This document shows, one piece after another, positions 4,827 to 63,470 of a stretch of DNA of 64,000 bases (position 1 is its first letter; every line of letters begins with the position of its first letter). Under the pieces are notes generated by a model. The model did not search any database. It was not told the origin of the DNA and saw nothing but the letters and a program-made list of their open reading frames with translations. The position numbers and the translations under genes were made by a program. Origin of the DNA: Escherichia phage CJY920; the sequence record PQ349265.1, one strand, 5' to 3'.

Positions 4827-4856
4827 GTTTACAAGCATAAAGCTTTATGGTACTAT
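4827..4856 (+). promoter_or_regulatory. early sigma70-type promoter
   Basis: GTTTAC -35, TACTAT -10. Confidence 0.5.
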
Positions 4857-4896
4857 ACAACTATCAACTACTGATACAGATTTGGAGAATAAAATG
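4849..4896 (+). repeat. conserved promoter-leader repeat, copy A
   Basis: ggtactatacaactatcaactactgatacagatttggagaataaaatg; near-identical copies at 28451, 49856, 63419. Confidence 0.7.
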
Positions 4897-5862
4897 AAAA
4901 CTGTAACTATCAATAAGGGTATCTACTTCGGTAAAGAAATCTCTGGAACTTTTGAGCTCTTAGGCGAATGGTTCCCAGATAATGCTCCGGTAGATGCACA
5001 AGGAGATGGTAAAGTTTTTGTTGAAATTGACGGTAAACGTCGCGGTGTTTGGGTTTACAAATCAGATATTTCATATGATGGTGTAAAAGTTGAAGAAGTT
5101 AAAGAATCATATGAAGATATGAAAACCCGCATTAATAAAAGATTTAATGTTATGGGAATGATGACGAACGGTATTATTAATGGAAATATTCGTTCATTAA
5201 TTATCTCTGGCGCAGCAGGTATTGGTAAAACGTATTCTTTAGATAAAGCTTTAAATAAAGCAAATGATATTGGATACATTGAATATAAAAGCATTAATGG
5301 TAAAATCTCTGGTATTGGTCTTTATGAACAGCTTTGGAATAATCGTGAAGAGAATTCTGTCCTTTTGATTGATGATGTGGATGTTTTCTCTGATATGGAC
5401 ATTCTTAATCTTCTAAAAGCTGCTCTGGACACTGGAGAGACCCGTAAAGTCTGCTGGAGCACTGCATCTTCTTACTTAGAAGAAAAAGGCATTGACCGTG
5501 AGTTTGAATTTAAAGGAACGATTGTTTTTATCACAAACGTTGACATTGACCGCGAATTAGACCGTGGTACTAAACTTGCCCCACACTTACAAGCATTGGT
5601 GTCCCGCTCAGTTTATTTGGATTTGGGTGTTCACACTAATGAAGAAATTATGGTCAGGGTTGAAGATGTTATTCTTTCAACTGACATGATGCAAAAGCGC
5701 GGTCTTTCTAGTGAAGAAACTTATAAAGCATTATCATGGATGAAAGTTAATGTTAATCGTTTACGCAATGTTTCACTGCGTACTGCTCTTTATCTTGCTG
5801 ACTTTATTATGACCGACAAAAACGGTTGGCAAGAAATCGCTGAGGTTACTCTTCTGAAATAA
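4894..5862 (+). CDS. AAA+/P-loop ATPase
   Basis: Walker A GAAGIGKT and Walker B LLIDDVD; start at ATG after GGAG SD. Confidence 0.7.
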   Translation: MKTVTINKGIYFGKEISGTFELLGEWFPDNAPVDAQGDGKVFVEIDGKRRGVWVYKSDISYDGVKVEEVKESYEDMKTRINKRFNVMGMMTNGIINGNIRSLIISGAAGIGKTYSLDKALNKANDIGYIEYKSINGKISGIGLYEQLWNNREENSVLLIDDVDVFSDMDILNLLKAALDTGETRKVCWSTASSYLEEKGIDREFEFKGTIVFITNVDIDRELDRGTKLAPHLQALVSRSVYLDLGVHTNEEIMVRVEDVILSTDMMQKRGLSSEETYKALSWMKVNVNRLRNVSLRTALYLADFIMTDKNGWQEIAEVTLLK

Positions 5863-5930
5863 ATTCATAAGAGGCCTTCTAAGACAAAAAGGCAGTTCAG
5901 AAATAGATTATATGGACTGCCATTAAAAAG

Positions 5931-6197
5931 ATGACTAGAACTAAACTGGTGAATGGAGGTAGTGATGTTATACTCAAAGACGGTTATAGATTTAGTGAAT
6001 ATATTTCCCCAGAGATGTATTCTTCAATAGAAAAAGGTGATAATATTACTGTAAGTTTACGTCCTTTCGACGTAAAACAGACACTGTTTGATAATATTGT
6101 TTGGTTCTTTGGGATGGTATTAGTTCAATCTGTGTGCGGTGCTTATGTAGTCTGTTCAATCATATTCTGTGTATTTAGTAAAATTGAAATTGAGTGA
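5931..6197 (+). CDS. hypothetical protein with C-terminal hydrophobic segment (88 aa)
   Basis: track ORF only; weak. Confidence 0.35.
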   Translation: MTRTKLVNGGSDVILKDGYRFSEYISPEMYSSIEKGDNITVSLRPFDVKQTLFDNIVWFFGMVLVQSVCGAYVVCSIIFCVFSKIEIE

Positions 6198-6204
6198 GGA
6201 AAAT

Positions 6205-7095
6205 ATGTCAGTAGCAATTAATAATGTCAATGCAGTAATTAAATCTTTAGTTAATAAAAAAATGATGAATGAATGGACTGTACTTCGCCGTGGAGAGCCA
6301 GATAAATTTTTTCATAGATTTAACCCAACTTTGGATTTGAATGTTATCGACAGAGATGTTCATGCTGAAATTTTAGATAAGTTTAAAGTTGATATTGGAT
6401 TTGGATTAGAAAAACATTTACAGCGAACAAATGGGTCTGGAATGAGTTTATCTAATCGCATTATGAAAGCCCTTAATAAAATTGGAGCGTTGTCTCGTAT
6501 TAATGCGAGTGAAATCCTTCGTAATTACAATAAAGGATATGACCTTTATGGTCGACTAATGCCAAAATTATCATTCGACCAAATGATTGCAGATTTGTGG
6601 GAAAATCAACGACGATTATTAGCATTGGGTGCTCGATTAGCTAAAGGTCTAGATAAACAAATGATTTTTAAGACCAATAATACAGAAGACCTTAAATGCT
6701 TTAAATTTAGTATTCGTGGAGATGATTATTACATCAGAGCTCACTCTACAGATTATGTTAATATGGGGCATCATCTCTGTTTAGCTTTTGAAGTTTTAAA
6801 AGAAGCTGGAACATTAGAATATTCATCTGGTGCAAAATGCCCTATTGGTTCAAGTTGTATTTTAATTTATCGCCCGGATGAATCCAGTTCAACTAAATTG
6901 CCTACGAAACCTGTACCAGTTCGTAGTAATGAAAAACATTCTGAACAAATTGATTATTTTAATAAACAGATTGAAGAGCTGAATATTTCTATTCAACAAT
7001 ATGACGATGAAATTTTCAGACTATCTGGATTGAGTAGTAAAGCTAAATCTGAGCGTGAAAAGTTAATTAAAATTGTTGATTTACTTAAATCTTAA
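6205..7095 (+). CDS. hypothetical protein with C-terminal coiled coil (296 aa)
   Basis: long ORF, ATG after GAGGA SD. Confidence 0.6.
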   Translation: MSVAINNVNAVIKSLVNKKMMNEWTVLRRGEPDKFFHRFNPTLDLNVIDRDVHAEILDKFKVDIGFGLEKHLQRTNGSGMSLSNRIMKALNKIGALSRINASEILRNYNKGYDLYGRLMPKLSFDQMIADLWENQRRLLALGARLAKGLDKQMIFKTNNTEDLKCFKFSIRGDDYYIRAHSTDYVNMGHHLCLAFEVLKEAGTLEYSSGAKCPIGSSCILIYRPDESSSTKLPTKPVPVRSNEKHSEQIDYFNKQIEELNISIQQYDDEIFRLSGLSSKAKSEREKLIKIVDLLKS

Positions 7096-7103
7096 GGAAC
7101 ACC

Positions 7104-8132
7104 ATGAAAACTCGTTCTCAAATTGAAGATATGGTTCGTAATGCCAGCTATACTCGTAATGTTATGACATTTTTGTGTGAAAATAATTTAGACCCTGATA
7201 AAGTTAATCGTGTTATTCATCACTTTAAGTATACGAATAGCAGTGAATGGGTGCGTAATTTTAGTAAAGCGGGGTATATTACACAAATGACTGCTCGTGA
7301 GCAGCTCACCGATTTCTGTAAAACTATTGATTATAAAAATCCTTTATTTGTTCAAGGCGTTGGTCAAAGTAAGGTCGATTTATCATCTGGATTTTTCAAT
7401 CCAAATCATTATCGTATTGAATGGAGATTTATTGCTCTGTTCCGTAGACAATTAAAGCAAATTTTATCAACTGCGAGTCGATTAAAAGGTTCTGATATTA
7501 ACTTAAAGAACCTGAAATTTGATGGTTATACTCTTCAGATGGAAGTAAGACCATTAAAAGAAAATAACAGAACTGCACGAATTAGCTTTAAACCTAATAC
7601 AAAAAATTCTCTTTCAATTTGCGAATGCCTTAAATCACAGTTGACAGAAGCATTTAAGTATATGGATGTTGTTGCTGCTGTTCAGTCTAAGATTTCACAA
7701 CATTTCGAACGATTTAAATTAGACACAACAACATATGAACTTGATATGATCGTTTCATTTAAATATGAATTTTTGAGAAAGGACGAAGTCCCGCAAGAGA
7801 AAAAGCAAGAAGTGCAAGATAACTTAAATTTAAATTTATCTAATTACTCATCAAACGATCCTAAATTTTGGATGTATAGTTCAGGTAATAAGGATGCATG
7901 GAAATTCAATAAAGTGAATTTTCTTCCTGATGAAAATCCGAGTCTTAAACCTGTTGAAAAATGGCATGCAGATGCGATTGAGAAGTCTATAAAGGCAGTA
8001 GATGATGAACTCGTTAAAGCAACTAATGAAGTGTTAGAAGCTGAAAAGATGCTAGAAAAAGCTCAAGAAAAAGTCAAAAATCTCACGAAGCAACGTTCTA
8101 AACTGAACAATGCACTAAATGCACTAAACTAG
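7104..8132 (+). CDS. hypothetical protein with C-terminal coiled coil (342 aa)
   Basis: long ORF with SD. Confidence 0.6.
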   Translation: MKTRSQIEDMVRNASYTRNVMTFLCENNLDPDKVNRVIHHFKYTNSSEWVRNFSKAGYITQMTAREQLTDFCKTIDYKNPLFVQGVGQSKVDLSSGFFNPNHYRIEWRFIALFRRQLKQILSTASRLKGSDINLKNLKFDGYTLQMEVRPLKENNRTARISFKPNTKNSLSICECLKSQLTEAFKYMDVVAAVQSKISQHFERFKLDTTTYELDMIVSFKYEFLRKDEVPQEKKQEVQDNLNLNLSNYSSNDPKFWMYSSGNKDAWKFNKVNFLPDENPSLKPVEKWHADAIEKSIKAVDDELVKATNEVLEAEKMLEKAQEKVKNLTKQRSKLNNALNALN

Positions 8133-8161
8133 TTTACTTTGCCACAAGGATGTGGTATAAT
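8132..8161 (+). promoter_or_regulatory. early sigma70-type promoter
   Basis: agtttactttgccacaaggatgtggtataat; nearly identical copy at 55488. Confidence 0.55.
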
Positions 8162-8189
8162 GTTCTTACTTTCTACTGAGGAGATTAAT

Positions 8190-9116
8190 ATGACTCGTAA
8201 ACATTATATTGATTATTTTAACAGTCTTATTACTAAACATCGTAATTATCAGATAGGACACAGAGCAGTAATCAATAATATTCTTCGTGATTTCCTTCAA
8301 TATGTTGGCCAGGAAAATCATATATGTAAAGATACACAGAACGCTTATTCTCATTCGTTAGGCAATTTGCTTCAATGGTTTAAACGTTCTCGTCTGTTAT
8401 CTTCTACTGTAGCTAGTGATAACATTAAAAACTTTATGAAGCCGAGCTTCATTAAATCTGCGACATCTATAACCGATTTGGTTGAATTTACCATTGTTAA
8501 CGATGTTAAAAAGACCCATTTGGCTGATTGGTTATCTACCATTCCTGAAACTAAATTTGCCGATAAATTCGCTTGTCAATTCAATGACCAAGTGAATATG
8601 CTTTTTAAGCATGCTCGTAAACTATTTACCGCGGGTGATGACCGTACAAATACAGTTCATGTTAAGGACTGGGTTATTGCTGATGAAGTAACACACAAGC
8701 CAGGCGGTTCATCAGTATTAATTAATATCCAGGTTCCTTATTATTACTCACGTAATCTCGGCACCATGACAGCTAGAGAAATTAATAAGCATAACAAAAC
8801 TATTCGTTCGTTGTCTTATAAACTCTGCACGATGGTGGAGATGATGGACGTAGTGGAAATGTATGATGAAACCGAAGATAATGGTTCAATGTTATACAGT
8901 TCACGTATTCTAATTAAACTGAAGAATCCTAATACATATAAGCCAGTTGTAAAAGAACCTAAAATAGAAAAAGTTGATAACTTGAGCGAAGAACGTGAAT
9001 ATCTCAATGCTCGTTTGATTGAAGTTGAAGCCCAGATTGCCGAACACACCAAATTGTTAAAAGCTCTTAATGCAAAAGCAAATGGTTTACGTAATGCTAT
9101 TGAGGTATTGAAATGA
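8190..9116 (+). CDS. hypothetical protein with C-terminal coiled coil (308 aa)
   Basis: ATG after GAGGAG SD downstream of promoter. Confidence 0.6.
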   Translation: MTRKHYIDYFNSLITKHRNYQIGHRAVINNILRDFLQYVGQENHICKDTQNAYSHSLGNLLQWFKRSRLLSSTVASDNIKNFMKPSFIKSATSITDLVEFTIVNDVKKTHLADWLSTIPETKFADKFACQFNDQVNMLFKHARKLFTAGDDRTNTVHVKDWVIADEVTHKPGGSSVLINIQVPYYYSRNLGTMTAREINKHNKTIRSLSYKLCTMVEMMDVVEMYDETEDNGSMLYSSRILIKLKNPNTYKPVVKEPKIEKVDNLSEEREYLNARLIEVEAQIAEHTKLLKALNAKANGLRNAIEVLK

Positions 9117-11540: not shown

Positions 11541-11869
11541 CAATTGAAAAAGAAATTGAAGGATTAACTATAACTGGAGGTGACCCTCTTTATCCTGATA
11601 ACCGAGATGTTGTTCATTGCATTGTTCAAACAGTAAAAAATCTTTATCCGAATAAAAGCATTTGGTTGTGGACAGGATATAAGTTTGAAGATATTAAACA
11701 ACTAGAAATGCTTAAATATGTTGATGTTATTATTGATGGGAAGTATGAGAAAAATCTTCCGACCAAAAAGCTGTGGCGAGGTTCAGATAATCAGCGACTT
11801 TGGTCAAATACCGATGGGGTGTGGAAACATGATTTTTCATTTTGGTCCAGAATTTTATTCGCAGTATAG
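11537..11869 (+). pseudogene. nrdG: truncated nrdG (anaerobic RNR activase) remnant lacking radical-SAM N-terminus
   Basis: LTITGGDPLYP...IWLWTGYKFED...IDGKYE...LWRGSDNQ aligns to NrdG C-terminal two-thirds; no CxxxCxxC part; ATGA overlap with gene 49. Confidence 0.55.
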
Positions 11870-16001: not shown

Positions 16002-16796
16002 ATGAATTATTTAAACATATATAATTCACTGATCGAAAAAGGACTAAACAGATGCAATGATAAAAGTCTTTTGACATACTATACTGAAACCCATCATATA
16101 ATTCCTAAATGCATGGGTGGTACAGATGATAAAACTAATTTAGTTCTTTTGACGCCAGAAGAACATTTTACCGCGCATTTATTGTTATTTAAAATTTATA
16201 GACTTCCTAAATTGGCTTTAGCTATTCGTATGATGTGTTATAGTTCTGACGGAACAAGACTAAATAATAAAATGTATGGATGGATTAAAACAGCTGTATC
16301 TTCCTCAATATCGGAAAGCATGAAAGAGTTCTGGAAAGATGATAATAATAAAAAATATATGTCTAACGCTAGACGAAATACTGGAAAACCAATTTATCAA
16401 TATGATTTAAATGGAAATTTTATTCGCAAATATAGATGTATTACAGACGCTGCAGAAGATATGTCATATAGATGTTCAAGTTCAATTAAACAGTGCGTAG
16501 ATGGGAAAAGGAAAACCGCTGGAGGATTTCAATGGAAATATTATTATTTTGATAACATAGGAAAGCCCTCTACGATGTCTAACACAACTAGACAAAAAAT
16601 GTCTAAGTCTAAACGTGGGATAACTCAGAAAAGAAATGTGCCAGTATTTCAATATGATACTGCTGGAAAATTATTACGAGTATTTCCTAAAATTAAAGAC
16701 GCAGCTGAATCCGTTAAAGGATGCATGTCTAATATTAAAAAGTGTATATCCGGAAAAAGTAAAATTGCTTATGGATACGTTTGGGCTTATTCGTAA
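16002..16796 (+). CDS. Mob-type HNH homing endonuclease (MobB-like by position)
   Basis: MNYLNIYNSLIEKG..., HHIIPKCMGG...NLVLLTPEEHFTAH; two C-terminal NUMOD1-like repeats. Confidence 0.8.
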   Translation: MNYLNIYNSLIEKGLNRCNDKSLLTYYTETHHIIPKCMGGTDDKTNLVLLTPEEHFTAHLLLFKIYRLPKLALAIRMMCYSSDGTRLNNKMYGWIKTAVSSSISESMKEFWKDDNNKKYMSNARRNTGKPIYQYDLNGNFIRKYRCITDAAEDMSYRCSSSIKQCVDGKRKTAGGFQWKYYYFDNIGKPSTMSNTTRQKMSKSKRGITQKRNVPVFQYDTAGKLLRVFPKIKDAAESVKGCMSNIKKCISGKSKIAYGYVWAYS

Positions 16797-23610: not shown

Positions 23611-23641
23611 TAATTTACACTAAAACTTGAATGAGGAAATT

Positions 23642-24601
23642 ATGATTACTGTAAATGAAAAAGAACACATTCTTGAACAGAAATATCGTCCATCTACTAT
23701 CGATGAATGTATTCTTCCCGCCTTTGATAAAGAAACCTTTAAATCTATTACAAGTAAAGGTAAGATTCCACATATTATTCTTCATTCTCCTTCTCCAGGA
23801 ACAGGTAAAACAACTGTAGCAAAAGCATTGTGTCATGACGTAAATGCTGATATGATGTTTGTGAATGGGTCAGATTGTAAAATTGATTTCGTTCGTGGTC
23901 CTTTGACTAATTTTGCTAGTGCAGCTTCATTTGATGGTCGTCAAAAAGTAATCGTCATTGATGAATTTGACCGTTCAGGGTTAGCAGAGTCTCAGCGACA
24001 TCTTCGTTCCTTTATGGAAGCTTATAGTTCAAACTGCAGTATTATTATTACTGCTAACAATATTGATGGTATTATTAAACCACTTCAGTCACGCTGCCGA
24101 GTTATTACGTTCGGTCAACCGACCGATGAAGATAAAATTGAAATGATGAAGCAGATGATTCGTCGATTGACTGAAATCTGTAAGCATGAAGGAATTGCTA
24201 TAGCTGATATGAAAGTTGTAGCAGCTTTGGTTAAAAAGAATTTTCCTGATTTTCGTAAAACTATTGGCGAGCTCGATAGTTATTCATCTAAAGGTGTTTT
24301 GGATGCTGGTATTTTATCACTGGTTACTAACGATCGTGGTGCTATTGATGATGTTCTTGAATCTCTCAAAAATAAAGATGTTAAACAGCTCAGAGCTTTA
24401 GCACCAAAATATGCAGCTGATTATTCGTGGTTCGTAGGTAAACTTGCCGAAGAAATCTATACACGCGTAACTCCACAAAGTATTATTCGTATGTATGAAA
24501 TTGTTGGTGAAAATAACCAGTATCATGGAATTGCGGCTAATACGGAATTACATTTAGCATATCTTTTCATTCAATTAGCATGCGAAATGCAGTGGAAGTG
24601 A
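23642..24601 (+). CDS. 44: clamp loader large subunit gp44
   Basis: 319 aa [17 protein letters not shown]...; Walker [11 protein letters not shown]; track start trimmed to ATG. Confidence 0.9.
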
Positions 24602-28346: not shown

Positions 28347-28428
28347 ATACAAGTAATATAAATCTATACTTATGAAAAAGAGATGATTCTGGACCCTTTG
28401 GATTCCCTAAAAATTTTTTCACAAAACT

Positions 28429-28458
28429 GTTTACATCCCTGTTCTTCCATGGTACTAT
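28429..28458 (+). promoter_or_regulatory. early sigma70-type promoter
   Basis: GTTTAC -35, TACTAT -10. Confidence 0.5.
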
Positions 28459-28498
28459 ACAACTATCAACTACTGATACGGATTTGGAGAATAAAATG
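28451..28498 (+). repeat. conserved promoter-leader repeat, copy B
   Basis: ggtactatacaactatcaactactgatacggatttggagaataaaatg. Confidence 0.7.
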
Positions 28499-43165: not shown

Positions 43166-43176
43166 TTCAAAAAGTT

Positions 43177-43208: not shown

Positions 43209-43234
43209 AGCTTCTGAAGTATATGGAGGCTATC

Positions 43235-43384: not shown

Positions 43385-43859
43385 AGCTCTTCATCGGCAG
43401 TTGAATAAAATCATTAAAAAGCATTTAACTGAATCACCTTATCAGTTATATCGTGGTATATCAAAATCGACAAAAGAGCTCATTAAAGATTTACAAGTTG
43501 GAGAAGTGTTTTCAACGAACAGGGTAGATTCATTTACTACTAGTTTGCACACAGCGTGCGGTTTTTCTTATGTTGAGTATTTCACTGAAATAATATTTCG
43601 CTTAAAAACTGACAAAGCTTTTAATTATTCTGACCATATCAGCGATATTATACTTTCTTCTCCTAACACTGAGTTTAAGTATACATATGAAGATACTGAT
43701 GGATTAGATTCAGAACGTACTGATAACTTAATGATGATTGTGCGTGAACAAGAATGGATGATTCCAATTGGAAAGTATAAAATAACTTCTATTTCAAAAG
43801 AAAAATTACACGATTCATTTGGAACATTTAAAGTGTATGATATTGAGGTAGTTGAATGA
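43284..43859 (+). CDS. modB: Mod-family ADP-ribosyltransferase (ModB-like by order; start uncertain, possibly ATG 43365)
   Basis: LYRG, SFTTS, QEWMIP motifs in ART spacing; tandem with second Mod gene. Confidence 0.6.
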   Translation: MSIFNMICIKRSVKNLLTLNSSVLWQCMEAKKNEALHRQLNKIIKKHLTESPYQLYRGISKSTKELIKDLQVGEVFSTNRVDSFTTSLHTACGFSYVEYFTEIIFRLKTDKAFNYSDHISDIILSSPNTEFKYTYEDTDGLDSERTDNLMMIVREQEWMIPIGKYKITSISKEKLHDSFGTFKVYDIEVVE

Positions 43860-44458: not shown

Positions 44459-44514
44459 TGGAAGGACTTAGATTCATTATACCATGAAAGTTTTAAAGCA
44501 TTTTTCATAAAGTT

Positions 44515-44544
44515 GTTTACAAGCTGAAGTAAAAATGTTATAGT
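44515..44544 (+). promoter_or_regulatory. early sigma70-type promoter
   Basis: GTTTAC -35, TATAGT -10. Confidence 0.5.
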
Positions 44545-44573
44545 ATAAGTAGTTAACCGTCCGTGAGAAAAAT

Positions 44574-45320
44574 ATGAAACTGTCTAAAAATCAAATTCGT
44601 AAAATTACACGTCGTCTAGAGCATACTCAGGCATCTGCCAAAAGACGTTCTAAAGATTTTAACTTAGACTTCAATTACATTAAGAACATTTTAGATCAGA
44701 AAGTTTGCGCTTACTCAGGAGAACCTTTTGATAATCGTATTGAAGGAGAGAAATTATCGTTAGAACGTTTTGATAATAACGTTGGATATATTAAAGGGAA
44801 TGTTATTGCAGTAAAGAAAAAGTATAATACATTTCGTTCTGATTATACTTTAGAAGAGTTGATTGAAAAGCGTGATTTATTTGCTTTGCGTATTGGTCGT
44901 TCATCTGCGAAAAAAGTTCATAAACTAAATTTAGATGAAAAGAAATGGGCTAAAATCAAAAAGACTTATAATCAAATTAAAGCTATACAGAAAAAACGTG
45001 AAAACCGAATTGAGCACATTTCTCAGCTTTCTAAGTCAAAACAAACATCTGACATTAAGCTAACGATTATAGCGCTTAAAGCTCGTATCGATGGTTCTCG
45101 TATAGCAGAAGGCGCTGAAGTTGTTAAATTGAACGTTCTTCTTAAAGGCTCGGATTGGAAAACTGTGAAAAAGTTGTCAGAAGCAGAAATGCAATATGAT
45201 ATGTGTGATAAAATTATTCAAGGTGTAGAGCGGTATCAAAACTTGTCTTTTATTGATAAACTTAAACTGAAAAGAGGATACCCGCTAAATTGTTCAATTT
45301 TTAAACTTATCCGAGGATAA
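44574..45320 (+). CDS. hypothetical basic protein (248 aa; syntenic position of T4 srd)
   Basis: track ORF between mod genes and dda; assignment positional only. Confidence 0.45.
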   Translation: MKLSKNQIRKITRRLEHTQASAKRRSKDFNLDFNYIKNILDQKVCAYSGEPFDNRIEGEKLSLERFDNNVGYIKGNVIAVKKKYNTFRSDYTLEELIEKRDLFALRIGRSSAKKVHKLNLDEKKWAKIKKTYNQIKAIQKKRENRIEHISQLSKSKQTSDIKLTIIALKARIDGSRIAEGAEVVKLNVLLKGSDWKTVKKLSEAEMQYDMCDKIIQGVERYQNLSFIDKLKLKRGYPLNCSIFKLIRG

Positions 45321-45321
45321 T

Positions 45322-45633
45322 ATGTTTTATGTATATGCGATAGTGTATAGAGATAAAGATGGATTTGCGGTGCCTGTTCCTCTTGATGAACATCGCCCTG
45401 CTGTATTTTTTGAAAGGGAGATTGCTGATAAAGTATTTACTGCTCTTAAAGAGCAATATCAACTAGCTTTAGGTATGGGAATTCCGAGATTAGTTGAGAC
45501 TCCACGCAAGTTTTGGTTTAATAAAATAGAAGTTAAACATGTTAAGCCTGATGTAGACACACAAAGATTATATCGGCGAATTTTAGATACTGGGCGTATT
45601 GTTAGTATACCAATTGCAGGGAATTTACGATGA
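45322..45633 (+). CDS. hypothetical protein (103 aa; dda.1 position)
   Basis: track ORF, ATGA overlap with dda. Confidence 0.55.
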   Translation: MFYVYAIVYRDKDGFAVPVPLDEHRPAVFFEREIADKVFTALKEQYQLALGMGIPRLVETPRKFWFNKIEVKHVKPDVDTQRLYRRILDTGRIVSIPIAGNLR

Positions 45634-46949
45634 CATTTGATGATTTGACCGAAGGCCAGAAAAATGCCTTTAACATTGTTATGAGGGCTATTAAAGAAAA
45701 GAAACATCATGTAACTATTAATGGACCTGCCGGTACCGGTAAGACTACTCTTACTAAGTTCATCATTGAAGCCTTAATATCTACGGGCGAAACTGGCATT
45801 ATTTTAGCAGCTCCTACACATGCAGCTAAAAAGATTCTTTCAAAACTGTCAGGGAAAGAAGCGAGTACTATTCACAGTATTCTTAAAATTAACCCAGTAA
45901 CATACGAAGAAAACGTTCTTTTTGAGCAAAAAGAAGTACCGGATTTGGCTAAATGCAGAGTATTAATCTGCGACGAAGTGTCAATGTATGATAGAAAGCT
46001 ATTCAAAATTCTGCTTTCAACTATCCCGCCGTGGTGTACTATAATTGGAATAGGTGATAATAAGCAAATTAGACCCGTTGACCCAGGAGAAAACACTGCT
46101 TATATCAGTCCGTTCTTTACGCATAAAGATTTTTATCAGTGTGAACTCACTGAAGTTAAACGCAGTAATGCTCCTATTATTGATGTAGCTACTGATGTTC
46201 GTAACGGTAAGTGGATTTATGATAAAGTTGTTGACGGGCATGGAGTACGTGGATTTACTGGTGATACCGCTTTACGCGATTTTATGGTAAATTATTTTTC
46301 AATCGTCAAATCGCTAGATGATTTGTTTGAAAATCGTGTAATGGCATTTACGAATAAATCTGTTGATAAGTTAAATAGCATTATTCGTAAAAAGATTTTT
46401 GAAACTGATAAAGATTTTATCGTTGGTGAAATTATTGTAATGCAGGAACCATTAATTAAAACATATAAAATTGATGGAAAGCCTGTGTCAGAAATTATTT
46501 TTAATAACGGACAATTAGTTCGTATTATAGAAGCAGAGTATACATCAACATTTGTTAAAGCTCGTGGCGTTCCTGGAGAATATCTAATTCGTCATTGGAA
46601 TTTAACAGTAGAAACTTACGGCGATGATGAATATTATCGTGAAAAGATTAAAATAATTTCATCTGATGAAGAGCTGTATAAGTTTAACTTATTTTTAGGT
46701 AAAACTGCAGAAACTTATAAAAATTGGAATAAAGGCGGAAAAGCTCCATGGAGTGATTTTTGGGATGCTAAATCACAATTTAGTAAAGTGAAAGCACTTC
46801 CTGCATCAACATTCCATAAAGCTCAGGGCATGTCTGTAGATCGTGCTTTCATTTATACACCTTGCATTCATTATGCAGATGCTGAACTAGCTCAGCAGCT
46901 TCTTTATGTTGGTGTAACACGTGGTCGTTATGATGTGTTTTACGTATGA
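45630..46949 (+). CDS. dda: DNA helicase Dda (SF1)
   Basis: 439 aa MTFDDLTEGQKNAFNIVMRAIKEKKHHVTINGPAGTGKTT...; matches remembered T4 Dda. Confidence 0.9.
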   Translation: MTFDDLTEGQKNAFNIVMRAIKEKKHHVTINGPAGTGKTTLTKFIIEALISTGETGIILAAPTHAAKKILSKLSGKEASTIHSILKINPVTYEENVLFEQKEVPDLAKCRVLICDEVSMYDRKLFKILLSTIPPWCTIIGIGDNKQIRPVDPGENTAYISPFFTHKDFYQCELTEVKRSNAPIIDVATDVRNGKWIYDKVVDGHGVRGFTGDTALRDFMVNYFSIVKSLDDLFENRVMAFTNKSVDKLNSIIRKKIFETDKDFIVGEIIVMQEPLIKTYKIDGKPVSEIIFNNGQLVRIIEAEYTSTFVKARGVPGEYLIRHWNLTVETYGDDEYYREKIKIISSDEELYKFNLFLGKTAETYKNWNKGGKAPWSDFWDAKSQFSKVKALPASTFHKAQGMSVDRAFIYTPCIHYADAELAQQLLYVGVTRGRYDVFYV

Positions 46950-49808: not shown

Positions 49809-49855
49809 AGTTTAAAATTTTTTTCATAAAACTATATACATCAGTAGTTGATTAT

Positions 49856-49909
49856 GGTACTATATCAATATCAACTACTGATACAGAAAACAATTTGGAG
49901 AATAAAATG
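49856..49909 (+). repeat. conserved promoter-leader repeat, copy C (variant with inverted-repeat flank)
   Basis: ggtactatatcaatatcaactactgatacagaaaacaatttggagaataaaatg; upstream atcagtagttgat is inverse of atcaactactgat. Confidence 0.65.
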
Positions 49910-50176
49910 GAAAACTTAATTATCATCGAACAATCTTTCAACGATTATGGTATGGCTTACGGTTATCGTGCGATAATGGAAGATTCTCGTGGATGTGTTA
50001 TCGATATTGCTGAATGTAAAGATTTACTGCAGCTTTTGAAGATTGTTCGTAAAAATTGGGATTGTGAAAACATTAAAGTTCGTGTTGTAACGGAAGAAGA
50101 AACTGTTTTTCATGATGTAAAATTTGCCAAAGGTGCTGCTACTCTTCTGAAACGCATCGCTCCACTGTTCAATTAA
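49907..50176 (+). CDS. hypothetical protein (89 aa)
   Basis: ATG after GGAG. Confidence 0.55.
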   Translation: MENLIIIEQSFNDYGMAYGYRAIMEDSRGCVIDIAECKDLLQLLKIVRKNWDCENIKVRVVTEEETVFHDVKFAKGAATLLKRIAPLFN

Positions 50177-53264: not shown

Positions 53265-54060
53265 TGACTTAATAGTGCGGGGTAAAACCCGCGTTTCTAA
53301 ATTTAAGGGTGAAATTCATCATATCCTTCCAAGATCAATGGGAGGTTCTGATGATAAAGAAAATTTGGTGAAACTGACTTTTCGTGAACATTTTTTAGCA
53401 CATTTTCTACTATATAAAATTCATCGTAATCGTGAAATGGCATATGCGATGAATAGAATGTTAAACACTGAAAAATATTTACGTTCTAGTAAATTATATG
53501 AAATTGCTAGAATTTACCATCAAAGAGCAGTATCTGAATGGTCAAAAAACTTTATGAAAGATAAAGTTTTAATGAGAAGTATTAAATCGGGTAAATGCGC
53601 CTTATTAATTAAAGGATCATTTAACCCAAAGGAATGGTGCGGTGTTAATAAAGGTGTTAAGCTTCCTGGAATTAAAGGCATGACATGCTTTAAAAATGAA
53701 AAAGGCGAAGTTTTTCGTCTTCATGTTAATGATCCACGCATTAAAGCTGAAAAATTAGTTGGTATTGGAAATACTGTTGCTGCTACTGCAAAAGCAGCTG
53801 AACTTGAAAAAGCGAAACCATGGTATAATAAATCAGCGACAAATCCAGAGGCTGTAAAATTAATACCAAATTTATATGAATGGTACGTCACGAAATATGA
53901 CCCCGATCATTATAAACGAACGGGAGTTGCTAAATGGAAATCAGTTAATAATATAACTGTGAATTCAAAATTATTCGGCCGAGCATTTAATGAATTTAAA
54001 CGCGGTTGGATTCCTGATGAAAAGTTCTATGAGGTGTATAATGAAATTTGTAAAAATTGA
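53242..54060 (+). CDS. mobA: Mob-type HNH homing endonuclease (MobA-like, between 39 and 60)
   Basis: MNYEKIYNDLI..., HHILPRSMGG...NLVKLTFREHFLAH; GTG start inside last 23 nt of gene 39. Confidence 0.75.
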   Translation: MNYEKIYNDLIVRGKTRVSKFKGEIHHILPRSMGGSDDKENLVKLTFREHFLAHFLLYKIHRNREMAYAMNRMLNTEKYLRSSKLYEIARIYHQRAVSEWSKNFMKDKVLMRSIKSGKCALLIKGSFNPKEWCGVNKGVKLPGIKGMTCFKNEKGEVFRLHVNDPRIKAEKLVGIGNTVAATAKAAELEKAKPWYNKSATNPEAVKLIPNLYEWYVTKYDPDHYKRTGVAKWKSVNNITVNSKLFGRAFNEFKRGWIPDEKFYEVYNEICKN

Positions 54061-54573: not shown

Positions 54574-55370
54574 TGAATTATCGTAAAATTTATGATAAAC
54601 TTATCGCTGCGGCTAAAAACCGCAGCACTATTCCTAATTATACTGAAACTCACCATATTTTGCCTAAATCTATGGGCGGGAGTAATGCTAAATCAAATCT
54701 AGTTAAAATGACCCCTAGAGAGCATTTTATCGCCCATTTATTGCTTTATAAAATTCATAAGAACCGTTCTATGCTTATGGCTATTAGAGCTTTTTACATG
54801 GGAGCTAGAAATTCTAGAGATTATGATTGGCTTAAACAAGAATTCTCTAAAGAGCACTCTAGATTTATGAAAGAATGGATTGCTAAAAATGGCAACCCAT
54901 TTAAAGGTAAAAAACATACTAAAGCAACAAGAGAATTAATGTCACATATTGCTTCACAACGTATAGGCGAATTAAATCCATTTTATGGTAAAACTCATAC
55001 GCAAGAAGCAATAGATAAAATAATACAGGCTAACAAGTTATCTTGGGAGAATGGGCGAAAAGCACCTGTAAAAACAAAAGAACACCAGGATAAAATAACT
55101 AAATCAAGAATGGAAACATTTAAAACAAAAGGATTTAAACCATACACTCCTAGGTCAGAAGAAACTAAAGCTAAGACTAGAGAGTTGTATAAATCTAAAT
55201 ATGAAAGAAGGCCTATAAGAATCACAAGTGTAAAAACAGGCGAAACTATTGATTTTAACTATCTTTATGAATTAAGGGAGTATTTAGATATAGGGTCTTC
55301 TAATATATTGAAAGCATTAAATAATCCTAACAGAACCTGCAAAGGTTATAAAATGTGTTGGATGTCCTAA
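54573..55370 (+). CDS. Mob-type HNH homing endonuclease
   Basis: MNYRKIYDKLI..., THHILPKSMGG...NLVKMTPREHFIAH; NUMOD3-like NPFYGKTHT; ATG overlaps gene 60 TAA. Confidence 0.75.
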   Translation: MNYRKIYDKLIAAAKNRSTIPNYTETHHILPKSMGGSNAKSNLVKMTPREHFIAHLLLYKIHKNRSMLMAIRAFYMGARNSRDYDWLKQEFSKEHSRFMKEWIAKNGNPFKGKKHTKATRELMSHIASQRIGELNPFYGKTHTQEAIDKIIQANKLSWENGRKAPVKTKEHQDKITKSRMETFKTKGFKPYTPRSEETKAKTRELYKSKYERRPIRITSVKTGETIDFNYLYELREYLDIGSSNILKALNNPNRTCKGYKMCWMS

Positions 55371-55412: not shown

Positions 55413-55487
55413 ATGAAAGTTATGTTTATCCCATCTCGTGCAGTCCCATTTAATCCTGACCTTCGCAAAGAATGGATGAGCCAATAG
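55413..55487 (+). pseudogene. remnant of an alternative gene 60 3' end
   Basis: 24-codon ORF ending ...PFNPDLRKEWMSQ*, resembling the actual gene 60 end ...GNDPELRKDWMLG*. Confidence 0.45.
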
Positions 55488-55516
55488 TTTACTTTACCAC
55501 AAGGATGTGGTATAAT
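55488..55516 (+). promoter_or_regulatory. early sigma70-type promoter
   Basis: agtttactttaccacaaggatgtggtataat; near-identical to 8132-8161. Confidence 0.55.
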
Positions 55517-55541
55517 TAATTGGGCAAATGAGGATATTGAA

Positions 55542-55745
55542 ATGAAATCATATAAAGTAAATTTAGAACTTTTTGATAAAGCAGTTCATCGAGAATATAG
55601 AATCATTCAACGCTTTTTCGATATGGGAGAAGCCGAAGAATTTAAAAACCGCTTTAAAGATATTAGAGATAAAATTCAATCCGACACCGCAACTAAAGAC
55701 GAACTACTAGAAGTTGCTGAAGTTATTAAGCGTAATATGAATTAA
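55542..55745 (+). CDS. hypothetical protein (67 aa; rIIA.1 position)
   Basis: track ORF upstream of rIIA. Confidence 0.5.
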
Positions 55746-55755
55746 TGAGGAAATT

Positions 55756-57933
55756 ATGATTATCACCACTGAAAAAGAAACAATTCTTGGTAATGGTTCT
55801 AAATCAAAAGCATTTAGCATCACAGCATCTCCTAAAGTATTTAAAATTCTGTCATCTGATTTGTATACAAACAAGATTCGCGCAGTAGTTCGTGAATTGA
55901 TTACCAACATGATTGATGCCCATGCTCTTAATGGAAATCCTGAAAAATTTATCATTCAAGTTCCTGGACGTTTAGATCCACGATTTGTTTGCCGAGATTT
56001 TGGTCCGGGTATGAGCGATTTTGATATTCAAGGTGATGATAATTCTCCTGGGTTGTATAATTCATACTTTAGTTCATCTAAGGCTGAATCTAACGATTTC
56101 ATTGGTGGATTTGGTTTAGGTTCTAAATCTCCGTTTAGTTATACTGATACATTTAGTATTACTTCATATCATAAAGGCGAAATTCGTGGTTATGTAGCTT
56201 ACATGGATGGTGATGGTCCACAGATTAAACCTACATTCGTAAAAGAAATGGGTCCAAATGATAAAACTGGTATTGAAATCGTAGTTCCAGTTGAAGAAAA
56301 AGATTTTAGAAACTTTGCTTATGAAGTTTCTTATATCATGCGACCATTCAAAGATTTGGCTATCATTAATGGTCTTGACCGTGAAATTGATTATTTTCCG
56401 GATTTTGATGACTACTACGGCGTAAATCCAGAAAGATACTGGCCAGATCGTGGTGGATTGTATGCTATCTATGGTGGTATTGTTTATCCTATTGATGGTG
56501 TTATTAGAGACCGTAACTGGTTAAGCATTCGCAATGAAGTGAATTACATTAAGTTTCCAATGGGTTCACTTGATATTGCTCCATCACGTGAGGCTCTTTC
56601 ACTAGATGATCGTACTCGTAAAAATATTATTGAGCGTGTTAAAGAGCTTAGTGAGAAAGCATTTAATGAAGATGTAAAACGATTTAAAGAATCTACATCT
56701 CCTCGTCATACATACCGTGAATTGATGAAGATGGGATATTCTGCTCGAGATTATATGATTAGTAATTCGGTCAAATTCACGACTAAAAATCTGTCATATA
56801 AGAAGATGCAAAGCATGTTTGAACCTGACAGTAAGTTATGCAATGCAGGGGTTGTGTATGAAGTAAATCTTGACCCTCGACTGAAGCGCATTAAGCAAAG
56901 CCATGAAACTTCAGCCGTTGCGTCAAGCTATCGTCTGTTTGGTATTAATACGACAAAAATTAATATTGTTATTGATAATACTAAAAATCGTGTTAATATT
57001 GTCCGTGGATTAGCACGTGCATTAGATGATAGCGAATTTAATAACACCTTAAATATTCATCACAATGAGCGTCTTCTGTTTATTAATCCGGAAGTAGAAT
57101 CACAGATTGATTTACTCCCTGATATTATGGCAATGTTTGAAAGTGATGAAGTTAACATTCATTATTTGTCAGAAATTGAAGCTTTAGTTAAAAGTTATAT
57201 TCCAAAGGCAGTAAAAAGTACAGCTCCTCGTCCTAAAACTGCCACTGCATTTAAGTTTGAAATTAAAGACGGGCGTTGGGAAAAAGAGGAATTGTTTACG
57301 CTCACATCAGAAGCAGATGAAATTACTGGTTATGTAGCATACATGCATCGTTCTGATATTTTCTCTATAGATGGTACTACATCGCTTTGTCATCCATCTA
57401 CGAATATTTTGATTCGTATGGCTAATCTTATTGGCATTAATGAATTTTATGTTATTCGTCCGCTTTTGCAGAAAAAGGTAAAAGAACTTGGTCAGTGCCA
57501 ATGTATTTTTGAAACTTTGCGTGATTTATATGTAGATGCTTTTGATGATGTAGATTATGATAAGTATGTAGGTTATTCAAGTTCAGCTAAACGATATATT
57601 GATAAAATTATCAAGTATCCTGAGTTAGATTTTATGATGAAGTACTTCAGTGTAGATGAAGTTTCTGAAGAATATACACGACTCGCTAATATGGTTAGTT
57701 CATTACAGGGTGTATATTTCAACGGTGGAAAAGATACCATCGGTCATGACATCTGGACAGTAACTAATCTTTTTGATGTATTATCAAATAATGCTTCAAA
57801 AAACAGTGATAAAATGGTTGCTGAGTTTACCAAGAAATTCCGTATTGTTTCCGACTTCATCGGTTATCGCAATTCTTTAAGTGATGATGAAGTTTCCCAA
57901 ATCGCTAAAACTATGAAGGCCCTTGCGGCCTAA
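55756..57933 (+). CDS. rIIA: rIIA protein
   Basis: 725 aa [30 protein letters not shown]...; matches remembered T4 rIIA. Confidence 0.9.
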
Positions 57934-59193: not shown

Positions 59194-59751
59194 ATGCAGA
59201 AAACAAATCCGGGTTTACAGAGACTATTTCAGATTCCAACATTTATCCTATCGAACGGTGACTTGACTAGTGAAATGAAGGTCAAAATTGCTGATACAGC
59301 AAGATACTCTTTAAAACAAAATCCTAATCAGGATAAAGCAGAAGTCATCGAAAGATGCCGTATCGCTGTGTATGCAGAGTTTTTTGTAGCAGATTGGCTG
59401 AGCGGGTATGTTAACAAAGGCCAAGAGGATGTTAATGACCCGTATACATACGCATGGGATGTATTGGCGCATCCAAGATATTGCGGGCTTCGTGTAGAAG
59501 TTAAGACACATCAAACTGACTCACGTTGGATTTCGGTAACAACCGGATGCAGCGGAGAGTATCCATATGGTTCTGGAATAAATCTAGGGCCCATTCTAAA
59601 TCATCAAGTCGCTGACTGTATAATTATATTCAACACTAAAGAAATTCATCCAGGTGTCATCCAGTACACTCCGAAGTTCATCGGTGACAGAGAAGACCTT
59701 CGTAAGGTTGTAAGAAAAAGCAACTACAACGGATGGTATCTTTCCATTTAA
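59194..59751 (+). CDS. denB: endonuclease IV DenB-like
   Basis: 185 aa, position adjacent to rIIB as in T4. Confidence 0.6.
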   Translation: MQKTNPGLQRLFQIPTFILSNGDLTSEMKVKIADTARYSLKQNPNQDKAEVIERCRIAVYAEFFVADWLSGYVNKGQEDVNDPYTYAWDVLAHPRYCGLRVEVKTHQTDSRWISVTTGCSGEYPYGSGINLGPILNHQVADCIIIFNTKEIHPGVIQYTPKFIGDREDLRKVVRKSNYNGWYLSI

Positions 59752-59767
59752 AAATTTTCACAAAACG

Positions 59768-59798
59768 GTTTACATACCACAAGGACTGTGGTACTATA
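59768..59798 (+). promoter_or_regulatory. early sigma70-type promoter
   Basis: GTTTAC -35, TACTAT -10; leader related to repeat family. Confidence 0.5.
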
Positions 59799-59824
59799 CA
59801 ACTATCAGCTACGGAGGAGTAAAA

Positions 59825-60013
59825 ATGAAATTTAAATTTTATTACGCTAAACATAAAATTACCGGTGAATTTATTGCATTTACGACTTCAACTACAGGTG
59901 AAGGAGATATTTTTACTGCAGTATTTTTATCAAAATGGGAATCAGATCAACCTTACTTATCATCGCGTGAAGATCTCCAACGATTAGTTAATGGAGAATA
60001 TAATGATTCATGA
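59825..60013 (+). CDS. hypothetical protein (62 aa)
   Basis: ATG after GGAGGAG. Confidence 0.5.
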   Translation: MKFKFYYAKHKITGEFIAFTTSTTGEGDIFTAVFLSKWESDQPYLSSREDLQRLVNGEYNDS

Positions 60014-60273
60014 TCATATTTAGTCCATGATTGTGTTAAAAAGGCAATAAAACAAAAACACCTGGAAATCGTTGAGATTGAACTATGAGTTCACTGTGGT
60101 GGTGTTTCGTTTGGTTAATTAGTATTCCAGTAATTTGTTTAACATTTACTTTTGTGATGAGGTTATTATGAAAATTTTGAATTCTGTACTTATTGCTTGT
60201 GCGTGGTGGGTTGTGCAAGTTTCAGCGGTAGTAGTTGGTATTCACATTTATTACGAATATTTTTAAAAAAGTT

Positions 60274-60303
60274 GTTTACAAGACTGTTCCTCTGTGGTAT
60301 TAT
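60274..60303 (+). promoter_or_regulatory. early sigma70-type promoter
   Basis: GTTTAC -35, TGTGGTATTAT. Confidence 0.5.
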
Positions 60304-60331
60304 TACCCTATCAACTACGGAGGAACAGAAA

Positions 60332-60445
60332 ATGAAAAAGATTGTTAAAGCTATATGGAATGTAGTTATAATACTAGTAGTTTTGAGTATATTCCCAATC
60401 GTTTTAATGATTGATGTATTAAACGCTTACTTTGGATTTATGTGA
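60332..60445 (+). CDS. small membrane peptide (37 aa)
   Basis: ATG after GGAGG; single TM helix. Confidence 0.4.
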   Translation: MKKIVKAIWNVVIILVVLSIFPIVLMIDVLNAYFGFM

Positions 60446-61862: not shown

Positions 61863-61866
61863 ATTT

Positions 61867-63195
61867 ATGCAACTGAATAATCGTGATTTAAAAAGTATCA
61901 TTGATAATGAAGCATTGGCTTATGCTATGTACACGGTTGAAAATCGTGCCATTCCAAATATGATTGACGGATTTAAGCCAGTTCAACGATTTGTTATTGC
62001 TCGAGCTCTTGATTTGGCACGAGGAAATAAAGATAAGTTTCACAAACTAGCTTCTATCGCAGGTGGTGTAGCGGACCTTGGATATCATCATGGTGAAAAC
62101 TCTGCGCAAGACGCAGGTGCTTTGATGGCTAACACTTGGAATAATAACTTTCCTCTGTTAGACGGTCAAGGAAACTTTGGTTCTCGTACTGTCCAAAAGG
62201 CAGCAGCAAGTCGTTATATTTTTGCTCGTGTAAGTAAAAATTTCTATAGCGTATATAAAGATACTGAATATGCTCCGGTACATCAAGATAAAGAACACAT
62301 TCCGCCTGCTTTCTATTTGCCTATTATTCCTACTGTTCTTCTTAATGGCGTTTCCGGTATTGCAACTGGTTATGCAACTTACATTCTTCCTCATAGTGTT
62401 TCTTCTGTTAAGAAAGCTGTATTACAAGCTCTTCAAGGAAAGAAAGTAACTAAACCGAAGGTAGAATTCCCAGAATTTCGCGGTGAAGTCGTTGAAATTG
62501 ACGGTCAATATGAAATTCGTGGAACGTACAAGTTTACTTCACGAACTCAAATGAATATCACTGAGATTCCGTATAAGTATGATCGTGAAACTTACGTGAG
62601 TAAAATCTTAGACCCGCTTGAAGATAAAGGCTTCATTACATGGGATGATGCTTGCGGTGAGCATGGTTTTGGCTTTAAAGTTAAATTCCGCAAAGAATAT
62701 TCTTTGAGCGATAACGAAGAAGAACGCCATGCAAAAATCATGAAAGACTTCGGGTTGATTGAGCGTCGTTCCCAAAATATTACAGTCATCAACGAGAAAG
62801 GAAAGTTACAAGTTTACGATAACGTAGTTGATTTAATCAAAGACTTCGTTGAAGTTCGTAAAACTTATGTCCAAAAGCGAATTGATAACAAAATCAAAGA
62901 AACTGAATCAGCATTTCGTTTAGCCTTTGCCAAGGCACATTTCATTAAGAAAGTAATTTCAGGTGAAATTGTTGTGCAGGGTAAAACTCGCAAAGAACTG
63001 ACCGAAGAACTTTCTAAAATTGAGATGTATTCTTCTTATGTTGATAAACTAGTCGGAATGAATATTTTTCATATGACTTCTGATGAAGCAAAGAAACTTG
63101 CTGAAGAAGCTAAAGCTAAGAAAGAAGAAAACGAATATTGGAAAACTACTGATGTAGTTACAGAATACACCAAAGATTTAGAGGAAATCAAATGA
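61867..63195 (+). CDS. 52: topoisomerase II medium subunit gp52 (GyrA-like)
   Basis: 442 aa, GyrA/ParC N-terminal domain-like; synteny. Confidence 0.9.
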   Translation: MQLNNRDLKSIIDNEALAYAMYTVENRAIPNMIDGFKPVQRFVIARALDLARGNKDKFHKLASIAGGVADLGYHHGENSAQDAGALMANTWNNNFPLLDGQGNFGSRTVQKAAASRYIFARVSKNFYSVYKDTEYAPVHQDKEHIPPAFYLPIIPTVLLNGVSGIATGYATYILPHSVSSVKKAVLQALQGKKVTKPKVEFPEFRGEVVEIDGQYEIRGTYKFTSRTQMNITEIPYKYDRETYVSKILDPLEDKGFITWDDACGEHGFGFKVKFRKEYSLSDNEEERHAKIMKDFGLIERRSQNITVINEKGKLQVYDNVVDLIKDFVEVRKTYVQKRIDNKIKETESAFRLAFAKAHFIKKVISGEIVVQGKTRKELTEELSKIEMYSSYVDKLVGMNIFHMTSDEAKKLAEEAKAKKEENEYWKTTDVVTEYTKDLEEIK

Positions 63196-63341
63196 GTCCA
63201 TTCATTGGTATTACAAGTGCGGCGTTAGTATCTGGTAGCATTTTACTGGCGGGTTTAGGCGTTGTTCCAGCCGTAGCAGGAGGTCTTCTTGCGTTCGGCA
63301 TTCAACGTGTTATCATGACAGTTATCACAGTCATGCAGTAA
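63192..63341 (+). CDS. small membrane peptide (49 aa)
   Basis: short hydrophobic ORF, ATGA overlap with gene 52. Confidence 0.4.
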   Translation: MSPFIGITSAALVSGSILLAGLGVVPAVAGGLLAFGIQRVIMTVITVMQ

Positions 63342-63344
63342 TTT

Positions 63345-63374
63345 TAGGGAGAGCCGAGGCTCTCCCTTTTTTAT
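63345..63374 (+). terminator. intrinsic terminator hairpin plus T-run
   Basis: agggagagcc-gagg-ctctccct followed by ttttttatttc. Confidence 0.65.
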
Positions 63375-63396
63375 TTCAAAAATTTTTTCACAAAAC

Positions 63397-63426
63397 GGTT
63401 TACAACCAAAGCATACTGTGGTACTA
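63397..63426 (+). promoter_or_regulatory. early sigma70-type promoter
   Basis: GTTTAC -35, TACTAT -10. Confidence 0.5.
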
Positions 63427-63470
63427 TACAACTATCAAATACTGATACAGAATTACGGAGATTAGAAAAT
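63419..63470 (+). repeat. conserved promoter-leader repeat, copy D
   Basis: ggtactatacaactatcaaatactgatacagaattacggagattagaaaatg. Confidence 0.65.

Follow-up and report, generated by a model that had tools for sequence, protein, structure and literature searches.

The stretch analysed here, called the window throughout, comprises 64,000 nucleotides (nt) of DNA from Escherichia phage CJY920 (record PQ349265.1), and the elements in question are near-identical promoter-leader cassettes that precede several unlinked early genes. Many Tequatrovirus genomes (HY01, T2-like and T4-like coliphages) match the window at 97-99% identity; for HY01 the value over positions 4700-5300 is 99.3%. Its plus strand corresponds to the minus strand of T4 and is the direction of early transcription. 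The gene order is rI/mobD region, nrdC, 55, 46, 45, 44, 43, imm, uvsX, 41, 61 and dam in the first part, and modA/B, dda, dexA, motB, cef, 39, 60, rIIA, rIIB, ndd, 52 and motA in the second. The repeats are very probably Tequatrovirus early-gene expression cassettes, the T-even form of promoter-early stem-loop (PeSL) elements. The cassettes, with their -35 and -10 boxes, Shine-Dalgarno (SD) regions, start codons and adjacent open reading frames (ORFs), are listed below together with one inserted module.

4778..4896, + strand: cassette 1, ahead of the nrdC.10 homologue; terminator hairpin GGGGGCCCTAGAGGTCCCC and T-run 4778-4801, A/T UP-like block about 4802-4826, -35 GTTTAC 4827-4832, TGG and -10 TACTAT 4848-4856, putative +1 about 4863, SD region GGAGAATAAAA 4884-4894, ATG 4894; orthologue T4 55433-55321.
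28405..28498, + strand: cassette 2, downstream of DNA polymerase gene 43 and before a 78-aa ORF (28496-28732) that is followed by imm.1 (28743); -35 28429-28434, -10 28453-28458, GGAGAATAAAA 28486-28496, ATG 28496; the T4 orthologue (about 27058) drives imm.1 directly.
49810..49909, + strand: cassette 3, between motB and cef and before an 89-aa ORF (49907-50176); degenerate -35 ATATAC 49834-49839, -10 49858-49863, 6-nt insertion in the leader, GGAGAATAAAA 49897-49907, ATG 49907; behind the T4 orthologue (6608) the 89-aa ORF survives as a frameshifted deletion remnant.
63346..63471, + strand: cassette 4, ahead of motA, with 2 substitutions relative to T4 163651; terminator hairpin 63346-63367, -35 63398-63403, -10 63422-63427, GGAG 63457-63460 (GGAGATTAGAA), ATG 63469.
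59745..59827, + strand: short-leader copy before a 62-aa ORF (59825-60013) absent from T4; -35 59768-59773, -10 59792-59797, GGAGGAG 59813-59819, ATG 59825.
60250..60334, + strand: short-leader copy ahead of the ndd.4 homologue; -35 60274-60279, -10 TATTAT 60298-60303, GGAGGAACAGA from 60319, ATG 60332.
8130..8192, + strand: second promoter type, copy 1, orthologue of T4 P-nrdC.4, here before an nrdC.3-like gene; GTTTAC 8132-8137, TATAAT 8156-8161, GGAG 8180-8183, ATG 8190.
55485..55544, + strand: second promoter type, copy 2, orthologue of the T4 rIIA.1 promoter; GTTTAC 55487-55492, TATAAT 55511-55516, SD GAGGAT without GGAG, ATG 55542.
4211..4776, + strand: inserted module of 566 bp, absent from T4, with its own promoter and a 161-aa ORF (4281-4766).

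The core of the family is the 29-mer GGTACTATACAACTATCAACTACTGATAC, which occurs on the plus strand exactly at 4849 and 28451, with one mismatch at 63420 and with three mismatches at 49856. When up to three mismatches are allowed, it is found at 4 places in the window and at none in 100 dinucleotide-preserving shuffles (0 expected). All four matches lie on the early strand, directly upstream of an ORF start, and are conserved in T4. A sequence-only reading of the window, made from the letters and their ORFs, had placed four copies at 4849, 28451, 49856 and 63419 and partial copies at 59790 and 60297; the first three and the partial copy at 59790 were recovered, whereas the motA copy lies at 63420 and the other partial copy at 60296. 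The two partial copies have short leaders, matching the main cassettes through CTATCA(A/G)CTAC and then passing straight into GGAGGA...ATG. The repeat had been taken to be 45-50 nt in size; alignment gave instead a 92-nt family (62-87% identity) that takes in the A/T-rich upstream block and the -35 GTTTAC, and the whole repeated unit measures about 90-125 nt per copy. The multiple alignment, which the same reading had proposed, thus confirmed the family and revealed both the larger unit and 15 variable nt between -35 and -10. A second promoter pair, described there as almost identical over about 30 nt, indeed shows 97% identity over 32 nt (8130-8161 and 55485-55516). At least four further plus-strand early promoters of the same general type are located at 12857, 37990, 41101 and 48163, and additional promoter-like copies at 34734, 35222 and 44497.

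The unit consists, in order, of a terminator hairpin (in some copies), an A/T-rich UP-like block, GTTTAC, a 17-nt spacer, TGG-TACTAT, the leader, the GGAG-containing SD sequence and ATG. The UP-like block upstream of the -35 box is conserved in the family as aaaaattttttcacaaaac, and the first 15 nt of the 17-nt spacer vary from copy to copy. The -35 GTTTAC is present in 11 of the 12 aligned cassettes, the exception being ATATAC in the copy at 49856 and likewise in its T4 orthologue; the 17-nt spacing and (T)GG-TAnnAT are found in all 12. Downstream of the -10 box the consensus reads ACAACTATCAACTACTGATAC(A/G)GA, then TTTGGAGAATAAA-ATG, and transcription probably starts at the conserved CTATCAA motif. 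The SD and the start codon form the 3' edge of the conserved unit, with conservation reaching ATG(A/G)AA in all copies. A clear GC-rich hairpin with a T-run precedes the copies at 4849 and 63420, and also the promoter at 41101; no canonical terminator was found ahead of 28451, 49856, 59790 or 60296.

The RegB-type sites of the cassettes overlap the SD and the ATG. The SD regions of cassettes 1-3, at 4884, 28486 and 49897, are exactly GGAGAATAAAA. In T4, RegB acting with ribosomal protein S1 needs the 11-mer GGAGAAUAAAA to cut efficiently (Durand et al. 2006, PMC1702504). The degenerate form GGAGRAYARAA has three matches only in the 64-kb window, all of them in cassettes (0.46 expected). The motA site GGAGATTAGAA deviates from it once, and its GGAG-to-ATG stretch is identical to that of T4. 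The claim that every leader carries GGAG in its SD was correct for seven of the eight leaders, but not for the promoter at 55485-55544, which has GAGGAT (GGAU). RegB requires a single-stranded site, and it cleaves motA well (PMC1702504). Six leaders folded with ViennaRNA gave z values of -0.8 to +1.4 and were no more structured than shuffled sequences; the fold prediction proposed by the sequence-only reading thus describes essentially unstructured leaders, as RegB requires. On the same values, and with a marginal 4-bp 5' hairpin, the leader as a structured RNA element was rejected, and an Rfam scan of the whole window yielded no family at the gathering threshold. The status of motA as a classic RegB target, also mentioned there, is experimentally proven in T4, where a regB-dependent cut between G and A is documented in vivo (PMC1702504, PMC9409239); a study of 2022 again relied on this cut for its standard assay (PMC9409239). 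The available part of PMC1702504 names just motA and the moderately cut nrdC.8, and the T4 nrdC.10, imm.1, cef-upstream and ndd.6-upstream sites are candidates for membership in its set of 24 T4 sites with efficient cleavage. The proposal that the leaders are RegB targets is supported by the three exact GGAGAATAAAA sites, by the identity of the motA SD with the T4 substrate and by the literature, and their cleavage in CJY920 is predicted from sequence. Of the 4 strict GGAGRAYARAA matches in the 91 kb of T4 covered, 3 lie in cassette paralogues. The T4 RegB consensus GGAGAAUAAAA may therefore result partly from common descent of the cassette copies and not from independent selection; that paralogy may inflate the published consensus is a mildly new remark.

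T4 carries orthologous cassettes at the nrdC.10, imm.1, cef-upstream, ndd.6-upstream, ndd.4 and motA loci and two extra ones at nrdC.8 and frd.3, and the second-type promoters are orthologous to those of T4 nrdC.4 and rIIA.1. The description of the repeats as promoter plus leader preceding early genes is supported by this orthology and by the Tequatrovirus identity of the window. A 561-nt query containing the motA cassette matched 3,669 places in 997 records, with 5-7 places per genome among the Tequatrovirus records listed; hundreds of relatives have copies in such numbers. Absence of the element from related phages had been named as evidence that would speak against it; the cassettes are kept at orthologous loci in T4 and in Tequatrovirus records. 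The comparison was extended to 8 motA upstream regions from Mosigvirus, Dhakavirus, Marfavirus, Gelderlandvirus, Karamvirus, Winklervirus and a Klebsiella phage. These regions keep GTTTAC, the -10 box and GGAG(A/U)-A-rich-ATG, and most of them also keep a CTATCAA-like start-site motif. The ACTACTGATAC part of the leader is not retained in the regions compared. The promoter, start-site motif and SD context are therefore old and constrained; the leader in its entire length of 47 nt characterizes the genus.

The comparison of the window with T4 by blastn revealed 19 interruptions of collinearity, with 38 breakpoint edges. Six of these edges fall inside the 12 cassettes, which make up 2.2% of the window (0.8 expected, p about 5e-5 for random placement), and a seventh lies 10 nt outside a cassette, in its terminator. 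Counted by cassette, 6-7 of the 12 hold the start or end of an indel between the window and T4. Both second-type promoters are marked by T4 homology breakpoints, at 8193-8209 (copy 1) and 55451 (copy 2). At the imm.1 locus the T4 cassette is joined straight to imm.1, whereas the window adds the 78-aa ORF, with the repeat ATGAAAAT delimiting the segment that differs. Ahead of cef, the 89-aa ORF has suffered a 208-bp frameshifting deletion in T4, beginning right after the ATGGAAAA of the cassette. Upstream of ndd.6, the promoters of the window and T4 are alike up to CTATCA and then diverge: T4 has a long imm.1-type leader including ATGAAAATCGCT, fused via AAATCG to the 3' flank, and the window has a short leader and the 62-aa ORF in its place. 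In T4 this ndd.6-upstream cassette (about 167029-167004, the counterpart of window 59790-60087) drives just an 8-codon ORF, MKIAEIEL*, the first 12 nt of which equal the start of imm.1; the arrangement suggests a patch that was copied over from the cassette of imm.1 and removed the 62-aa ORF in the process. The 566-bp module at 4211-4776 has a terminator-promoter unit on either side and lies between the terminator of nrdC.11 and cassette 1; it is an example of gene insertion bounded by cassettes.

Sharing of parts between distant copies is also seen. The nrdC.10 cassette of the window, including its terminator and the 'free' spacer, is near-identical to the T4 frd.3 cassette, which lies about 90 kb away on the T4 map, and the spacer aagactgttcttcc is common to the imm.1, ndd.4 and nrdC.8 cassettes. 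In Tequatrovirus contigs from IMG/VR one promoter half occurs with differing leaders, the fusion point of chimeric leaders is CTATCAA, and the long leader stands ahead of at least seven unrelated ORFs. These contigs were reached by a pattern scan and a motA-based locus search, which returned 10 and 13 loci, numbers that suffice to show leader swapping and are too small for covariation statistics. Three of the IMG/VR loci (L023, L024 and L026, about 4611-4958) are Tequatroviruses with a 98% identical MotA, in which motA stands behind a Mosigvirus/Dhakavirus-like promoter and the chimeric leader has its junction at CTATCAA. The upstream half of the usual motA cassette drives, in L024 and L026, an extra ORF (MKFKIENEIV...) inserted before motA; L023 also has this ORF, but the -35 region of its cassette is not intact. 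The suggestion that the repeats could serve as recombination substrates is borne out by the T4 breakpoints inside cassettes, by the mosaic paralogues and by the match to published PeSL behaviour (PMC2839356 and the available part of PMC4122927). Leaders that are base-for-base identical over about 47 nt, shared spacers and a leader type that switches at a single locus argue for repeated exchange. Constraint on the flanking blocks is indicated by the variable 15-nt spacer lying between near-identical blocks and by the cross-genus conservation. Functional selection and exchange between copies are both at work.

The promoter activity, RegB cleavage and recombination activity of such cassettes are known from the literature on T4 and its relatives, and the following course would apply to CJY920 by analogy. 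Host RNA polymerase would transcribe the downstream gene immediately after infection from a strong sigma-70 early promoter. The transcript would carry an unstructured leader of about 30 nt ending in a GGAG SD and ATG-AAA. Within minutes RegB, with ribosomal protein S1, would cut inside the SD and silence the gene, so that the net effect would be a brief burst of expression. Immediate-early transcription followed by RegB inactivation is well grounded for T4 and is presumed for CJY920. Because the copies are 60-95% identical and dispersed, the active T4 recombination system would use the cassettes, together with short ATG-proximal microhomologies, as crossover points. Such crossovers would move, delete and swap small accessory ORFs and leader variants among loci, and the exchange would keep the copies similar yet mosaic.

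T4 early promoters were reportedly the subject of a study by Liebig and Ruger in 1989 (cited in PMC9391042). A review (Hinton 2010, PMC2988021) presents them as promoters of the UP/-35/TGn/-10 kind that are exceptionally strong and in which further positions are conserved. The cassettes of the window share the UP-like A/T block, the -35 GTTTAC, the TGn, the -10 box and extra conserved positions with them, and differ by a few substitutions and by other ORFs immediately downstream at three loci. Like the T4 RegB/S1 sites (PMC1702504, PMC3014915), they have GGAG in an early SD with an A-rich tail, and in three copies the site is exactly GGAGAAUAAAA. For the PST/T4 PeSLs, the available part of PMC4122927 gives the consensus TTTACW-N17-TAYWAT, which the promoters of the window match; it places an AT-rich region and a stem-loop upstream and lets the unit end, on its 3' side, in SD and ATG. 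The same part of that work (Comeau et al. 2014, PMC4122927) extends the PeSL concept to PST/T4 and nt-1/KVP40 and shows ndd.4/ndd.5 exchange. PeSL mini-circles were detected by inverse PCR in RB49/phi1, with crossovers between the -10 box and the SD/ATG (Arbiol et al. 2010, PMC2839356), and T4 recombines experimentally at microhomologies of 6-10 bp (PMC9391042). The cassettes resemble PeSLs, as far as PMC2839356 and the available part of PMC4122927 describe them, in being dispersed near-identical composites with a sigma-70-type early promoter and often a terminator stem-loop just upstream. Like the PST/T4 PeSLs in the available part of PMC4122927, they adjoin indels and replacements, including the variable ndd.4/ndd.5 region. 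RegB is unmentioned by Arbiol et al. 2010 (PMC2839356), and the available part of Comeau et al. 2014 (PMC4122927) draws no link between PeSL cassettes and RegB. Nothing essential is different from the published PeSLs, and the window is that of another Tequatrovirus.

Several observations weigh against the cassettes being RegB-regulated, recombining PeSL elements throughout. A clear terminator hairpin accompanies just two of the four main copies, so not all are full PeSLs, and this restriction of the stem-loop to some copies is a departure from the published elements. Another departure is that several junctions consist of microhomology at the ATG, next to a cassette (the 8-bp ATGAAAAT, AAAAT), and are not crossovers between cassettes. 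The excess of breakpoints is strong against random positions but would be much smaller against a gene-boundary null, about 10% of boundaries having such a promoter (a rough, uncomputed estimate). The short-leader copies (GGAGGAACAGA, GGAGGAGUAAA; sites at 59813 and 60319) deviate more from GGAGRAYARAA and in this differ from the T4 RegB/S1 sites. The closest T4 counterpart of the short-leader type, nrdC.8, is just 'moderately cleaved' in the available part of PMC1702504. The regB gene itself lies outside the window; in HY01, a close relative, its annotated position is beyond the 5' edge of the window.

Convergence or purifying selection on a strong promoter and an optimal ribosome-binding site, acting without recombination between copies, would also produce similar cassettes. 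The 15 nt between -35 and -10 do differ in most paralogues while the functional blocks on either side are near-identical, and the motA promoter of other genera keeps GTTTAC, the -10 box, CTATCAA and GGAGAAAUAAA while the rest differs, which indicates real functional constraint. Selection of this kind would not account for paralogues that share an unconstrained spacer and an upstream terminator (the nrdC.10 cassette and T4 frd.3; aagactgttcttcc), for leaders identical base for base over about 47 nt with their linker bases included, or for a leader type that varies between phages at one locus with chimeras joined at CTATCAA; as a full explanation it is improbable. The notion that the repeats are chance or low-complexity matches has in its favour that the genome is AT-rich and that a generic sigma-70 pattern scan of the window gave no excess (58 sites, 64.6 expected). 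The scan is uninformative in this AT-rich genome, from whose background the cassettes stand out solely by their extended conservation and not by the generic pattern. Chance is refuted by the shuffle test of the 29-mer and by conservation in T4, as well as by the placement of all matches on the early strand directly before ORF starts.

It was also considered that CTATCAACTACTGATAC (+1..+17), with the dyad TATCA-ACTAC-TGATA (+2..+16), is a separate cis-element, either an operator or a 5' RNA hairpin, which if true would serve to shut off part of the immediate-early transcripts of Tequatrovirus rapidly or to make their stability differ. The 5+5 inverted repeat is present at the putative start site in 4 copies of the window, ViennaRNA draws a 4-bp 5' hairpin in three of these leaders, and the shut-off mechanism of early promoters is 'not completely understood' (Uzan and Miller 2010, PMC3014915). 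However, the hairpin is marginal, with whole-leader folds of -1.1 to -4.7 kcal/mol that are no more stable than those of shuffles, and the arms show no compensatory changes. The short-leader copies and some Tequatrovirus motA promoters lack the right arm, as do the 8 motA upstream regions compared from other genera, those of Mosigvirus, Dhakavirus, Karamvirus, Gelderlandvirus, Winklervirus and Marfavirus among them. The spacing of the arms is reduced from 5 to 2 by a 3-nt deletion in T4 nrdC.10 and several relatives. A separate function of the dyad is unlikely, less likely still than selection without exchange, and the cassette more probably spreads a RegB 'off switch' along with its promoter than a cis-element of this kind.

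With the repeats read as shuffled early-gene expression cassettes, the analysis recovers three published T-even features from raw sequence, namely the 'über' early promoters, the RegB-sensitive SDs and the PeSL-type shuffling cassettes. All of these, including the shuffling role, are already in the literature. In annotation the cassettes mark immediate-early transcription units and predict burst-like expression ended by RegB, and they flag the ORFs of 78, 89, 62 and 161 aa as recently shuffled accessory genes. As the cassette carries an optimal RegB/S1 site, a captured gene would therefore inherit both an 'on' and an 'off' signal; this is a modest point that does not appear in PMC2839356 or in the available part of PMC4122927.

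The ORFs of 78 aa (28496-28732) and 62 aa (59825-60013) lie directly behind cassettes and are absent from T4, and the 89-aa ORF (49907-50176), also directly behind a cassette, is a frameshifted remnant there. Pfam and PHROG searches of the small downstream ORFs returned families of unknown function only, except for the 161-aa ORF, which has a partial PHROG match to the C-terminal part of the 'RNA polymerase ADP-ribosylase' profile only (E 6.5e-24) and no Pfam match. At its N-terminus the 78-aa product resembles a signal or lipoprotein peptide (MKIVYGCLAVCLVALA). About 3.7 kb of T4 sequence (T4 42635-46355, with nrdD, I-TevII, mobC and most of nrdG) is missing from the window at 11567-11647, as are nrdC.9/nrdC.8 at 5972-5979 and nrdC.4 at 8193-8209. 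The loss of nrdC.4 leaves an nrdC.4-type promoter in front of the nrdC.3-like gene. The segment 54564-55451 is an insertion or replacement relative to T4 and adjoins the rIIA.1 promoter.

The promoter-like copies at 34734-34797 and 35222-35285 represent another early-promoter type, with T4 equivalents near 20590 and 57968. An inverted repeat of about 10 bp (gacaggacta...tagtcttgt) encloses the -10 box of this type (GGTATAGTA) in its loop, an arrangement that recalls the RB49-style PeSLs with a stem overlapping the -10 box; the dmd/tifA promoter region is one of the two copies. Near-identical terminator hairpins of one family, (A)AGGGCTTCGGCCCTT(T), each with UUCG as the tetraloop, occur at 13552, 18052, 23581, 25528, 51639, 58870 and 59100, and some of these hairpins are readable on both strands. 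Four 124-nt segments (2465-2588, 16085-16208, 53310-53433 and 54644-54767) share 65-70% mutual identity and lie within ORFs resembling HNH 'mob' homing endonucleases. Two unlinked genes at 23630-23675 and 55744-55789 have in common the SD and the first 30 or so coding nt (AATGAGGAAATTATGATTA...; 80% over 46 nt), a similarity that may be a short recombination or duplication footprint at a gene start.

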